A stretch of DNA of 49,389 bases from a virus (Duplodnaviria > Heunggongvirae > Uroviricota > Caudoviricetes), in IMG/VR virus record IMGVR_UViG_2851966386_000003, positions 1 to 49,389 of that record. The stretch is one strand, 5' to 3'. Every line of letters starts with the position of its first letter. The stretch's first letter is position 1. Below, piece after piece: positions 6,850 through 39,181 of this stretch. Position numbers and translations under genes: made by a program. The notes beneath the pieces are model-generated. The model had not been told where the DNA came from, made no database searches, and saw only the letters and a list, made by a program, of their open reading frames with translations.

Positions 6850-7263
6850 CTATTTTTTTTGATTGTTTATGAGGTCGTAGACGTCGTTCTTAAGCAACTC
6901 GATATCGTGCAGGACACCTTTGGTGTGAAGGATAAGACGCAACTTTTCGGACTCAGGAAGTTGGTTAAAGAGCGAGAGTATCATTAGCTCCTTTTCGTCC
7001 AGGTCACGATTTGATGATAACGTCTGATCAGGCTTATCATCAGTTTCATCTGAGGGAAGAAAGAACCAGTGCTCTGGTTTTCCTGTTGCTGCAGCAAGTC
7101 GCTTTAACCTCTCACCACTCGCAACACTTTTCCCTTTAGCCCAATTTTGCACAGCAGTGTGCGAGAGCATGACCTTCTTGGCTAGATCGGATTTATTCCA
7201 GCCATTTTCAGTCATGACTTGTTGAATTCTTTTGGCAAAAACTGGGTAAGTGATCTCATTCAT
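6850..7263 (-). CDS. XRE-family HTH repressor (CI-like, no peptidase domain)
   Basis: 137-aa ORF with HTH (SDLAKKVMLSHTAVQNWAKGK); divergent from Cro-like gene. Confidence 0.7.
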   Translation of the reverse strand: MNEITYPVFAKRIQQVMTENGWNKSDLAKKVMLSHTAVQNWAKGKSVASGERLKRLAAATGKPEHWFFLPSDETDDKPDQTLSSNRDLDEKELMILSLFNQLPESEKLRLILHTKGVLHDIELLKNDVYDLINNQKK

Positions 7264-7374
7264 AAGTGCATTTTACAACCTAAGGTTTCACTCAGCACTA
7301 AAACAATTTCTTTCATTTGTTGAAACATAAACTTTCGTCGTATATGCTTCTCTCCATCAAACCAAGGAGAGCAC
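7264..7374. promoter_or_regulatory. Divergent promoter/operator region of the immunity switch
   Basis: 111-bp intergenic region between divergent repressor and cro-like genes; palindrome TTTCAtttgtTGAAA at 7311-7325; candidate -35 TTGAAA / -10 TATATG; AAGGAGA SD before ATG 7375. Confidence 0.5.
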
Positions 7375-8155: not shown

Positions 8156-8416
8156 ATGAATCACATCGAATTTATTGAGAAGAACGTCCGCGAGGAACTT
8201 CTTCGCCAGGGCTTCACGCAAGCAGTGGCTCAGGGGGGGGCATACCAGGCGGTCGGTATGTACAAGCGGATGTCACAGGCAAGCCGAAAAGGGGGAATGT
8301 TTGACGATGTTATGCGACACGCAAAGTTATGGGCAGAGAAGCAGACCAGCGCAGCTGAACGCCGGGAAGCAAAGCGTAAAGTGCGAAAGGGCGGCGACCA
8401 GGCTGGGTTGTTCTGA
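8156..8416 (+). CDS. Hypothetical phage protein
   Basis: 86-aa ORF between regulatory genes and replication protein O. Confidence 0.4.
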   Translation: MNHIEFIEKNVREELLRQGFTQAVAQGGAYQAVGMYKRMSQASRKGGMFDDVMRHAKLWAEKQTSAAERREAKRKVRKGGDQAGLF

Positions 8417-8490
8417 AAGGGTGAAGACTGTTGTGCGCCAACACAGCCAGTCTTCGGGTGAATTAATTGGGTCAATTCACGGGATGAAGT

Positions 8491-9408
8491 ATGTCAAATA
8501 CCGCTGAAGTTATCAATTTTCCAATCAAAACCGAACTAACGGGAGGTCGCATGGCCGACCTGTCCAACGGCTATACCAGAATCGCCAATGAGATACAGAA
8601 ACTCAAACCGAGGCTGCGCATGTCCGGGCGCGAGTGGCAGTGTCTTGAGGCTGTTATCTGGCTTACCTACGGATGGAACAAAAAACAGGATCGGGTGACG
8701 AATACCGTGATTTCTGAGTTAACCGGCTTGAGTGATTCTCATGTTTCAGATGCGATAAAGCTACTCGCGGCACGGGGAATTATTTTTAGTCACAAGCATG
8801 GTGTGATGAAAACTGTCGGTATAAATACTGAGCTATCCGCCTGGATTTTGGACAAACCGAAAACGGGAAAACTCTTCCCGAAAACGGGAATTTCCTTCCC
8901 GGAATCGGGAAAAACCTTCCCGGAAACGGTAGACACCCAAGACTATAACAAAAACAATATTAAAAGATCTTCGTCTCGGAATTCTGAAGAATCCCGAAAC
9001 AAGGAAACATTGAAGTTTCTCTCTCGTCATCCAGAAGCGGTCGATGGGATTTATACCCCTGCAGGAAAATCCTGGGGAACAGCTGACGACCTCAAAGCCG
9101 CGCGATGGATTTTCGATAAAACCCTCACCGTGAATGCCTCCCTCTCAGAGCCGAACTGGGTTGAATGGGCAAATACCATCCGTCTGATGCGCATGCAGGA
9201 CAAACGCAGCCATTACGAAATTTGCGAATTGTTCAAGTGGGCCAACGAAGACAGCTTCTGGCAGAACAACATTCTGAGCCCCACCAGCCTGCGGAAACAG
9301 TGGGATCAGCTCACGACTAAACGCCTGCGCAACCATGGTCCATCCAGAAGCGCATCAGGCGCCAGTGCGCTGGACAACACAGACTGGATCAACGGGGTAC
9401 TCGAATGA
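8491..9408 (+). CDS. O: Replication initiator protein O (lambda O-like)
   Basis: N-terminus parallels lambda O (NTAEVINF...LTYGWNK...DRVT); iteron array embedded mid-gene. Confidence 0.85.
   Translation: MSNTAEVINFPIKTELTGGRMADLSNGYTRIANEIQKLKPRLRMSGREWQCLEAVIWLTYGWNKKQDRVTNTVISELTGLSDSHVSDAIKLLAARGIIFSHKHGVMKTVGINTELSAWILDKPKTGKLFPKTGISFPESGKTFPETVDTQDYNKNNIKRSSSRNSEESRNKETLKFLSRHPEAVDGIYTPAGKSWGTADDLKAARWIFDKTLTVNASLSEPNWVEWANTIRLMRMQDKRSHYEICELFKWANEDSFWQNNILSPTSLRKQWDQLTTKRLRNHGPSRSASGASALDNTDWINGVLE
8857..8975. repeat. Iteron array plus AT-rich tract inside O gene (putative phage origin)
   Basis: Repeated cccgaaaacgggaa-like units at 8857-8929 followed by AT-rich stretch caagactataacaaaaacaatattaaaag; same layout as lambda ori inside O. 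Confidence 0.6.
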
Positions 9409-10148
9409 AATCTATCGCAGAAAGCATGCACAACTTCGACCGTGAAAACTTCCAGCGAGTGGCTGCCGGGCTTCCGGAAATGCAGGACGAGCAGGCATTA
9501 AAGCGCCAGGCGGCCAAGACTGCGGAGATCTTCAACGAGCTGTTCCGCCAGCTGCTTGCCGTATTCCCGGTGCTGGCCAACAAATCTGTGGAAGACCTCA
9601 ACGAGATGCGTCGCCAGTGGTTGTTGGCGTTCAAAGAGAACGGGATCACCACAGTTGAGCAGGTTAACGCAGGGATGCGGGTTGCGCGCAAACAGGAAAA
9701 ACCATTCATGCCATCACCGGGACAGTTCGTCGCCTGGTGTCGTTCTGAGGAGGCGGTAACTGTAGGCCTGCCAGATGCGAGTGAGCTGGTTGAAATGGTT
9801 TACCAGTATTGCCGGACTCGCGGCCAGTATCCAGACGCTGAGTCGTACCCATGGCCTGAGCACAAAATCGAACCGTTAACGCTGAAACACAAAGCCTGCT
9901 ACTGGATGGTTACTGGCTTGTACGCAGACATGCGCGCAAACGGCCTCAGCGACACTGAGTTGCGACGTAAGGCGCAGGATGAGCTGCTGCGTATGGTTCG
10001 TCGCTTGAATGCCGGGGAAGTGATTCCCGAGCCGGTTAAGCAGATCCCAAAGCTTGGCGGACGTCCGCTTAGTAACGAGCAGGGCTTAAACAGAATCGCT
10101 GAAATCCGCGCGAAATTCGGTTTAGGCAGAGGGCGGAAACATGGCTAG
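9405..10148 (+). CDS. P: Replication protein P (helicase loader, lambda P-like)
   Basis: Long stretches match lambda P by eye (ITTVEQVNAGMRVAR...PSPGQFVAWCR...YPDAESYPW...GEVIPEPVKQ). Confidence 0.85.
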   Translation: MKSIAESMHNFDRENFQRVAAGLPEMQDEQALKRQAAKTAEIFNELFRQLLAVFPVLANKSVEDLNEMRRQWLLAFKENGITTVEQVNAGMRVARKQEKPFMPSPGQFVAWCRSEEAVTVGLPDASELVEMVYQYCRTRGQYPDAESYPWPEHKIEPLTLKHKACYWMVTGLYADMRANGLSDTELRRKAQDELLRMVRRLNAGEVIPEPVKQIPKLGGRPLSNEQGLNRIAEIRAKFGLGRGRKHG

Positions 10149-10476
10149 AGCATTATCAGCAGTTGAGCGCAGAGAGTACGTCCGCGCAGTGATTCGGATC
10201 ACCAGGCATCAGGGGCGCCTTACGACCACCGAGGCAATGAAAAAACTGGGGCTGAGCCGCGCTACTGTCCAGCGGTATTTTTCCGAAGCAGAAGCGACTG
10301 GCGAGGTTGTCCGGCATGGTCGTCTGGGGCTGTTCTGCGATCAGAGGGCCGTCATCGACTTTGACATGAAGCGTTTTGGCCTGGTGCCGAAAGTTGCTGT
10401 TGGGATGAATTACAGCCTGCTTGGCAGTCCTGTTTTTCAGCGAGTTTTAGATGTTCAGGAGGCTATTCATGGCTAA
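10141..10476 (+). CDS. Hypothetical protein (Ren-like position)
   Basis: 111-aa ORF overlapping end of P; position equivalent to lambda ren. Confidence 0.4.
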   Translation: MARALSAVERREYVRAVIRITRHQGRLTTTEAMKKLGLSRATVQRYFSEAEATGEVVRHGRLGLFCDQRAVIDFDMKRFGLVPKVAVGMNYSLLGSPVFQRVLDVQEAIHG

Positions 10477-11254
10477 GAATTCAATCGATGTATACGGTGC
10501 CAGCGGCAAAACAAATGTGCTCAATTTCGAGCCTGAAAACCTGCACCTTGTCACCGATAAGACCCACCCACTTTACGATGAGCGTGTACACCTGCCGATC
10601 GAGGAAGGAATGGTACTGAACATTGCGGAGCTGGGGGTACTGGAGCCAATCATCGTCTGGAAAGACCCTGAAACGGGGCTCACCTGCGTAGTTGTTGGCC
10701 GTCAGCGCGTTAAGCATACCCTGGAGGCAAATAAACTCCGTCTGAAAGAAGGCAAAGACCGACTGCTTGTTCCCGGAGTCGTTAAGCGCGGATCAGCAAA
10801 TCAGATGGCTAAATACATGGTCAGCGAAAACGAAATTCGCAGACCCGATACGCCGCTTGGCCGGGCTAAAAAAATGTCAGATGCCCTCGACCGCGGGCTC
10901 GATGAGGACGACATTGCGGTGTTGTTTGGCTGCAGCGTTCAGACAGTTCGAGCAACGCTCTCCCTCCTCGATGCTACTCAGGCCGTCAGGGAAGCGGTGG
11001 AGGCTGGCACAGTCACCGTTACCCAGGCGCGTCAGCTGGCATCGCTTAAACCCGAAGAGCAGCGGGCAAAAGTGGCAGAAATCAAGCTGGCGACAGCTGG
11101 CGCAACCGGCCATGAAAAAGCCCGGCGTCAGCGTCAGATCCTCGGTGATGCAAAGCCTCGCCTGAAAACCCGCAAAGAAATCACAAAAGCTCTGGAATCT
11201 GCCGAGGGTGAGTATGCGAGCGCACTCCGTTGGGTGCTCGGGGAGGCTGTATGA
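10469..11254 (+). CDS. ParB-like nuclease domain protein
   Basis: ParB N-terminal-domain-like region (IVWKDPETGLTCVVVGRQR) and HTH-like segment; AGGAGG SD 6 nt before ATG 10469. Confidence 0.55.
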   Translation: MAKNSIDVYGASGKTNVLNFEPENLHLVTDKTHPLYDERVHLPIEEGMVLNIAELGVLEPIIVWKDPETGLTCVVVGRQRVKHTLEANKLRLKEGKDRLLVPGVVKRGSANQMAKYMVSENEIRRPDTPLGRAKKMSDALDRGLDEDDIAVLFGCSVQTVRATLSLLDATQAVREAVEAGTVTVTQARQLASLKPEEQRAKVAEIKLATAGATGHEKARRQRQILGDAKPRLKTRKEITKALESAEGEYASALRWVLGEAV

Positions 11255-17468: not shown

Positions 17469-17548
17469 GCCTGTGATTAGTCGCTCTTCGATAGCAATGT
17501 ATGCAGAGTGTATTGACGCTAGCTATGTTTACAGCATAACGTATTGAT

Positions 17549-17657
17549 GTGGTGAATCCCCCTATGCGGAGGGGCGACCAGTCAGTTACAGAAACCTGTA
17601 AATGCAGCGCGGCCATGCCGACTGGGGCATGCTCACCGGGAGGCACCCGGCACCACA
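17549..17657 (+). repeat. Copy 1 of ~108-nt structured repeat element (candidate ncRNA or recombination site)
   Basis: gtggtgaatccccctatgcggaggggcgaccagtc...gactggggca...ccgggaggcacccggcaccaca; shares conserved 5' and 3' arms with copy at 20245..20351. Confidence 0.6.
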
Positions 17658-17816
17658 CTGCCACATAACATATTTAAGATTTATGGAAGGTTTACTTCTG
17701 CGGTTGCCCTTCTATGTTTATAGAACGTAACGGCAAAAGTGAATGCTTCCTGGTAAATCGGTAGCTCGGACTATTAGGAGTGGCTTCGTTTCGTTACTAC
17801 CTAGAATGCCTACTTT

Positions 17817-19991: not shown

Positions 19992-20244
19992 GTGAGTTAA
20001 CCCTCCTAGGGACCATGGATATTATGGTTCGCATGAGGGGTAGTGTGGGATTTAAGTGAGAAAATTCCTAACTGGAATTTTTTCTTAATTTGAAACCTGA
20101 TATGAAACTTTATTGTTGGTTTTGTAATGATTCAATATGAAATGATTAATTATTGTCTGCCAGGATATACAGTTTTCCGAAAGAGGTGTTTTTACTGGTT
20201 ACATCGGATTGACTATGCACTTATCGCATAGCTAATGTAGATGC

Positions 20245-20351
20245 GTGGTGAATCCCCCTGTGCGGTGGGGCGACCAGCCAGGTTTTCTCTTTGAGCACAC
20301 ACGCAGGTCTGTTGGCTGGGGCAGACTTACCGGGAGGCACCCGGCACCACA
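20245..20351 (+). repeat. Copy 2 of ~108-nt structured repeat element
   Basis: gtggtgaatccccctgtgcggtggggcgaccagcc...ggctggggca...ccgggaggcacccggcaccaca; possible hairpin terminator at 20371-20397. Confidence 0.6.
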
Positions 20352-20544
20352 ACATACTGCATAACCCCATAAAGGCCTTCCATTACGGTAGGCCTTTTCT
20401 CTTCTGGTTGTATCTAATACTGTGGGCAGGTCAGCTGGCTTATGCAGGACAGATTATTTTTTCTTATTGAATGCCGCTTCTGGTGTGCTTATATTCTACC
20501 TAAAAATGGGTAGGTGTGTTGTGATTAGAAAATGCTATGCAAGA

Positions 20545-38800: not shown

Positions 38801-39181
38801 ATGTTTAACCCTGATAAATACCGTTCAGTCACCTGGCTGAAGGGCGGGCGCGTATACCCGCAACTCGACTGTTTCGGCATTGTGAACGAGATACGCCGCG
38901 ATCTGAATTTACCCGTCTGGCCCGATTTTGCAGGGGTAACCAAAGACGACGGCGGCCTCGACCGGGAAGCACGCCGGATGATGCTTACCCTTGAGCGCTG
39001 CGAACCCTGCGAAGGGGCCGGGGTGGCCTGTTATTCCGGGTCGACTGTCACCCACGTAGGGATCGTGGTCAGTATCGATGGTCTGTTGCATGTGGCGGAA
39101 TGCAACCCAGGCACGAACGTCACCTTTCTGCCGTTGCCGCGATTTAAGCGGCGCTTTGTTCGCGTGGAGTTCTGGCAATGA
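38801..39181 (+). CDS. NlpC/P60-like tail-associated peptidase (gpK-like)
   Basis: Conserved Cys (LDCFGIV) and His (VTHVGIV) spaced as in NlpC/P60 peptidases; position before tip gene. Confidence 0.5.
   Translation: MFNPDKYRSVTWLKGGRVYPQLDCFGIVNEIRRDLNLPVWPDFAGVTKDDGGLDREARRMMLTLERCEPCEGAGVACYSGSTVTHVGIVVSIDGLLHVAECNPGTNVTFLPLPRFKRRFVRVEFWQ

Follow-up and report, generated by a model that had tools for sequence, protein, structure and literature searches.

A predicted phi80-class replication origin within the O gene of a lambdoid Klebsiella phage or prophage

RESULTS

Organization of the O gene region

The window, the whole stretch of 49,389 nucleotides analyzed here, carries genes in the order cI-like/cro-like/cII-like/orf/O/P, all of them rightward except the cI-like gene. 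The main features of this region are as follows.

6850 to 7263, leftward: cI-like helix-turn-helix (HTH) repressor gene
7320 to 7348, plus strand: candidate pR-like promoter (TTGAAA-17-TATGCT) upstream of the cro-like gene, from a consensus scan only
8491 to 9408, plus strand: O-family replication initiator gene, 305 amino acids (aa), assigned by PF04492, TIGR01610, and homology to phi80 gp15 and lambda O
9405 to 10148, plus strand: lambda P-type helicase-loader gene, overlapping the O stop codon (PF06992; E value of 3.7e-60)

The O product matched the Pfam family PF04492 (Phage_rep_O) over residues 20 to 118 (E value of 1.5e-24) and the NCBIfam model TIGR01610 (phage_O_Nterm; E value of 4.8e-35). 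The protein consists of an N-terminal DNA-binding domain (residues ~1 to 120), a linker that bears the origin region (~121 to 182), and a C-terminal domain (~183 to 305). A weak HTH_24 match in the N-terminal domain was consistent with a winged helix; a PDB sequence search with O returned no solved O-family structure and had 5zr4, a weak winged-helix hit, as its only match (E value of 0.0036). The product of the next gene belongs to the Phage_lambda_P family (PF06992) and is 62% identical to lambda P and 39% identical to phi80 gp14. As in lambda, O is followed by a P-type loader in a rightward early (pR) operon, the promoter of which is represented by a consensus match only; this candidate matches the sigma-70 consensus at 9 of 12 positions, and transcription from it would cross the origin rightward. 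Identity over the region was 97.7% with the deposited Klebsiella phage Kpn_R1 and 80 to 88% with three further phages of Klebsiella or E. coli.

Several other elements were observed around O and P. Between 7375 and 8416, the cro position is occupied by a YdaS-family protein (76 aa, below the Pfam cutoff) and the cII position by a YdaT-family protein (178 aa; E value of 8e-27), and an 86-aa open reading frame (ORF) without a Pfam match (8156 to 8416) lies directly upstream of O. The position after P is held in lambda by ren and the nin genes; in the window, positions 10141 to 11254, directly after P, contain two overlapping genes, one for a 111-aa winged-helix protein of the DUF977 family and one for a protein of 267 aa that has a ParB-type HTH domain. 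On the minus strand, a sigma-70-like promoter (TTGATA-17-CATACT with TG; 8516 to 8488) is located at the start of the O gene and is conserved with the lambda pO/oop promoter and the phi80 M3 RNA promoter region. Downstream of it, minus-strand positions 8481 to 8400 contain two hairpins (z score of -4.2) with only a weak U-run, and the segment from 8516 to 8400 probably specifies an oop-like RNA, antisense to the end of the operon that lies upstream. An Rfam scan of the whole window gave no match in the origin region; it identified two plus-strand copies of the gammaproteobacterial small RNA STnc100 (17518 to 17721 and 20217 to 20405; 71.9 and 81.5 bits, respectively; gathering score, 47), separated by ~2.7 kb within the late/nin-like region.

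Four dyad iterons lie within O

Positions 8854 to 8932 contain four 16-bp dyad repeats with the consensus TTCCCGRAAWCGGGAA and an exact 21-bp period. The unit dyad is TTCCCG-N4-CGGGAA, and the in-register copies begin at 8855, 8876, 8897, and 8918 (spacing of 21/21/21 bp).

8854 to 8869, plus strand: iteron 1, AAACCGAAAACGGGAA, aligned with phi80 gp15 site 1
8875 to 8890, plus strand: iteron 2, TTCCCGAAAACGGGAA, a perfect 6+4+6 dyad, aligned with phi80 gp15 site 2
8896 to 8911, plus strand: iteron 3, TTCCCGGAATCGGGAA, aligned with phi80 gp15 site 3
8917 to 8932, plus strand: iteron 4, TTCCCGGAAACGGTAG, aligned with phi80 gp15 site 4

The pattern TCCCGRAANCGGGAA was searched for throughout the 49-kb window with up to 2 mismatches allowed and with 100 shuffles as a control. 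Six matches were found, all between 8855 and 9006, compared with a mean of 0.53 in the shuffles, none of which reached 6. The window therefore has the dyad array of the lambda origin architecture, in four copies with a 21-bp period. The initial annotation had reported at least four repeats at 8857 to 8929; these are real, and we count exactly four iterons. A candidate fifth iteron at 8992 to 9006 was rejected; this segment is the right arm of a 28-bp palindrome homologous to that of lambda.

Each iteron is a dyad, and dimer binding is therefore implied. The outermost half-sites depart from the consensus: the left arm of iteron 1 (8854 to 8859) reads AAACCG and the right arm of iteron 4 (8927 to 8932) reads CGGTAG, and both are near-invariant in relatives, including phi80. 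Because these half-sites are degenerate, occupancy of the array by four O dimers is uncertain.

The array lies in the linker that follows the N-terminal DNA-binding domain of O, at the same position as in lambda, where the iterons span nucleotides 349 to 433 of O. In the O frame the iterons encode residues 122 to 148 and specify the heptad (F)P-K/E-T/S-G-x-x in the interdomain linker, a tolerant part of O.

An AT-rich tract and a palindrome adjoin the array

Two further features follow immediately to the right of iteron 4.

8933 to 8972, plus strand: AT-rich tract, presumed DNA-unwinding element, identified by GC content, stability, and homology to the lambda and phi80 tracts
8973 to 9000, plus strand: 28-bp palindrome, GTCTCGGAATTC-TGAA-GAATCCCGAAAC, with 12+4+12 symmetry

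GC content falls to 25 to 30% at about 8930 to 8989, and A is in excess on the top strand (AT skew of up to +0.67). The 40-bp segment starting at 8930 is the least stable in the O gene, with a nearest-neighbor dG of -45.7 (O-gene mean per 40 bp, -56.5; standard deviation, 4.0), and is among the least stable 1% of the whole 49-kb window. As in lambda, a strand-asymmetric AT tract of ~40 bp directly follows the last iteron, and it shows DNA-level homology with the tracts of both lambda and phi80. The AT-rich stretch noted after the repeats in the initial annotation was borne out, as was the placement of array and tract within an O-like reading frame, since the ORF at 8491 to 9408 matches both O-family models. 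The element had been placed at 8857 to 8975; its location was correct, but it starts 3 nucleotides earlier, at 8854, and ends ~25 nucleotides further on, at 9000, because the palindrome adjoins the AT tract.

The palindrome is homologous to GTCAGAGAATTC-TGGC-GAATCCTCTGAC on the right side of the lambda origin, and it occupies the same place to the right of the AT tract. After the tract, TTCGTC...GAATTCTG..GAATCC is conserved as DNA sequence in the window, phi80, and lambda. Across 14 sequence variants, the 11-pair dyad was complementary in 92% of cells, compared with 17 to 52% paired in slid controls; 4 pairs were changed on both sides among these variants, although the two-sided changes derive from few independent events. 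The energy of the hairpin is not special: a stable hairpin or cruciform was considered and rejected, the single-strand fold being no better than shuffles (z score of 0.16), and the palindrome is treated here as a conserved dyad. In a Klebsiella/Enterobacter subgroup, both arms are altered to GAAT(T/C)CCGA(G/A)AC and resemble the subgroup's own iteron half-site, TTCCCGAAAAC. Covariation of the arms with iteron type did not hold as a rule, in that phi80 and several other genomes combine arms of the lambda type with phi80-type iterons.

The N-terminal domain and iterons are of the phi80 type

In a translated search of phage genomes, the closest classical relative of O was the product of phi80 gene 15, with ~65% (65.5%) identity; identity to lambda O was 36% overall. 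The similarity is unevenly distributed along the protein. Residues 1 to 120 are 82% identical to phi80 gp15 (99/120) and 33% identical to lambda O, the linker (~121 to 182) is 69% and 29% identical, respectively, and residues 183 to 305 are 46% and 44% identical. Both the iteron sequence and spacing and the N-terminal domain of O are of the phi80 gp15 kind. The phi80 type does not extend to the whole module: P is lambda-like and the C-terminal domain is about equidistant from phi80 and lambda, and for this reason we describe the part that sets origin specificity (N-terminal domain plus iterons) as phi80 type and the rest as mosaic. Alignment to the lambda and phi80 origins, the check proposed in the initial annotation, was positive, with iterons that match those of phi80 and an AT tract and palindrome homologous to those of lambda. 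The suggestion of a lambda-like origin within O is thus supported, and the comparison sharpens it to a predicted phi80-type rather than lambda-type specificity.

Synonymous variation is suppressed over the predicted origin

A scan of viral contigs yielded 80 relatives with 80 to 100% protein identity, which together with the window represent 72 distinct O genes. Synonymous variation was taken as third-codon-position entropy in a codon alignment of these 72 genes.

8839 to 9000, no strand assigned: zone of suppressed synonymous variation, the minimum of third-position entropy for the whole gene

Third-position entropy was 0.17 in codons 123 to 170 (8857 to 9000), 0.67 in codons 1 to 122, and 0.77 in codons 171 to 305, and the 48-codon stretch of lowest entropy in the whole gene begins at codon 123 or 124. 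A minimum of synonymous variation over 8839 to 9000 argues for selection on the DNA itself. Inside the array, entropy was 0.03 for the four core codons of each iteron unit and 0.40 for the spacer codons (gene mean, 0.64). Such a contrast is to be expected where protein-binding cores alternate with unconstrained spacers; a peptide repeat would not give rise to it. Low synonymous variation could in part reflect recent recombinational spread of the module instead of purifying selection, a reading that is disfavored because cores and spacers contrast inside the array.

Three relatives (L009, L010, and L031) lack precisely one 21-bp unit through an in-frame deletion (O nucleotides ~366 to 430) and retain three iterons; their O ORFs are otherwise intact, at 298 aa.

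Iterons travel with the O N-terminal domain

Bacterial genomes, one per species, were scanned for two adjacent phi80-type iterons. Such a pair was found in 23 enterobacterial species, including members of Klebsiella, Enterobacter, Kluyvera, Citrobacter, Pantoea, and Izhakiella. The array was inside an O-like ORF in all 23, and the N-terminal domain was 79 to 100% identical to that of the window. Across the same species, the C-terminal domain of O was 44 to 89% identical, and the neighboring P was 31 to 91% identical or not found. What moves as a unit is the iteron array together with the O N-terminal domain; the C-terminal domain and P are exchanged around it. In a Buttiauxella metagenome-assembled genome (L090) with a phi80-type O and origin, no P homologue was found in a search that extended 900 bp beyond the O ORF, and this genome may use a different helicase loader. 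The iteron-bearing ORF of Kluyvera genomosp. 3 (L111) is only 115 aa long, which suggests that its O gene is disrupted.

The origin segment was also present in 122 of 5,426 complete E. coli genomes. These include DH5alpha (84.8% identity), the genotype of which includes a phi80 derivative (PMC7466680) that may hold the match.

The other O-type genes examined all carry a dyad array of their own at this location, with a ACAAAAGA-type AT tract after it. The iterons are as follows.

lambda: ATCCCTCAAAACGAGGGA, 4 copies, spacing of 20/24/23
4A7: TTACCCGAATCAGGTAA, 5 copies
PhiR12_2: TGTCACCAAAACGGTGACA, spacing of 20/24/23
P22 gene 18: TTTACCAGATCGGTAAA, spacing of 20/24/23
phi80, PHB10, and the window: TTCCCGAAAACGGGAA, spacing of 21/21/21

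DISCUSSION

The segment from 8854 to 9000 very likely serves a lambdoid Klebsiella phage or prophage as its origin of vegetative replication, and its sequence places it in the phi80 specificity class. From homology to lambda, we infer that this origin is bound by O, unwound at the AT tract, and loaded with helicase in O- and P-dependent replication. According to the general mechanism of lambda initiation (PMC5043065, PMC7466680), O dimers would bind the four dyad iterons (8854 to 8932) through the winged-helix N-terminal domain. A spacing of 21 bp, or about two helical turns, would align all four dimers along a single face of the helix and allow wrapping of the DNA into an O-some. The strain of wrapping, together with negative supercoiling from rightward pR-type transcription, would be expected to melt the A-rich tract at 8933 to 8972. 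The C-terminal domain of O would then recruit a complex of DnaB with P (encoded at 9405 to 10148), from which host chaperones would subsequently free DnaB.

Other explanations of the repeats were weighed against an origin. The repeats might serve the protein, as a tandem seven-residue FPKTGxx motif that arose by slippage in a flexible O linker and has no role as DNA. The 21-nucleotide period does correspond to whole codons, the array encodes a regular heptad, and single 21-bp units have been lost in frame in nature (L009, L010, and L031). Yet every unit has dyad symmetry in its DNA, a property for which a peptide repeat has no need, and third positions are near-invariant in the cores (0.03 versus the gene mean of 0.64) while the spacers vary. 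Moreover, other O types with quite different linker peptides always have dyad arrays at this place, and the phi80 record annotates these sites as gp15 binding sites; we consider a purely peptide-level role very improbable. Binding by another protein, such as the neighboring DUF977 winged-helix protein, or the ParB-like protein at a regulatory site or one of the parS type, is improbable to the same degree. Dyad repeats are generic protein-binding sites and two more HTH proteins are encoded just downstream, at 10141 to 11254, but throughout the 23 species the array is accompanied by the same O N-terminal domain (79 to 100% identity) while the downstream genes differ. The same array is found in phi80, where the gene after gp14 is annotated as N15 gp45-like (a comparison by annotation only), and the position of the array is homologous to that of the lambda iterons, which are bound by O (PMC5043065).

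The segment might instead be the decayed, nonfunctional origin of a defective prophage, its features retained through recent common descent. The window begins with a possible integrase-type ORF and could be an integrated prophage, and some relatives are broken, as in the 115-aa O ORF of L111. Against this, O and P are intact and overlap as they do in lambda, the region is 97.7% identical to that of the deposited phage Kpn_R1, and selection at the DNA level is visible in relatives down to 80% protein identity; a dead origin is accordingly highly unlikely. Even taken jointly, a protein heptad, a site for another HTH protein, and a dead origin are an unlikely set of alternatives to a phi80-class replication origin.

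The 16-bp dyads, the exact 21/21/21 phasing, and the invariantly degenerate outermost half-sites raise the idea that the phi80-class initiation complex differs in geometry from that of lambda and that the remodeled palindrome arms form an extra O site. We regard this as unlikely; if it were true, the remodeled arms would constitute a fifth, inverted O site, and O sites would bracket the unwinding element.

The value of these results lies chiefly in annotation, as they fix the origin, its extent (8854 to 9000), and its phi80-type class for a family of Klebsiella and Enterobacter prophages. They also provide a clean natural illustration of iterons and the O N-terminal domain moving as a single module. 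The assignment could be used to predict replication incompatibility or cross-activation between coresident prophages and to build Klebsiella vectors based on the origin, O, and P. The finding opens no new biological question.

Comparison with known origins

Plasmids F, R6K, RK2, and pSC101 likewise have a helically phased array of initiator sites beside an AT-rich unwinding element (PMC5043065). Plasmid iterons, however, are direct repeats, situated outside the rep gene and recognized by Rep monomers, whereas those of the window are dyads inside the initiator gene, and the window initiator is of the O family (PF04492), unlike the Rep_3/RepA-type plasmid initiators. The window thus has neither direct, nonpalindromic iterons outside a rep gene nor an initiator of the Rep_3/RepA type.

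Among phages, the Stx phages 933W and P27 show the same layout, with iterons and an AT tract inside the initiator gene (PMC7466680), but unlike the window, Stx phage origins have six lambda-type iterons. P22 gene 18 also contains iterons and an AT tract; its iterons are TTTACCAGATCGGTAAA, and a DnaB-type helicase gene stands in place of P, unlike in the window.

The lambda origin (NC_001416) consists of iterons at 39034 to 39118 followed by an AT tract and then a palindrome. It shares with the window a location inside O between the two domains, four dyad iterons, an A-rich tract of ~40 bp, and a 28-bp palindrome that contains GAATTCTG..GAATCC; in both, the P gene is next and the origin lies within the pR operon. 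The iterons differ: those of lambda (ATCCCTCAAAACGAGGGA) are 18 to 19 bp long and spaced 20/24/23, while those of the window are 16 bp long and spaced 21/21/21, and the gap between the TCCC and GGGA blocks is 9 nucleotides in lambda and 6 in the window.

The closest counterpart is the phi80 origin in gene 15 (NC_021190, 36663 to 36739), where the record annotates four gp15 protein_bind sites. These align column for column with the window iterons, which they match in consensus, in the 21-bp period, and in the degenerate outer half-sites. The two origins also agree in the AT tract (ACACCCAA.AC.A.AACAA.AACA.TATTAAAAGATCTTCGTC) and in their position within the initiator gene. They differ in the palindrome arms (GTCTCGG/CCGAAAC in the window and GTCCGAG/CTCTGAC in phi80) and in host, which is Klebsiella for the window and E. 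coli for phi80. The architecture and iteron class described here are already known from phi80; what the window adds is a Klebsiella member of the class, in which the C-terminal domain of O and the P partner are mosaic.
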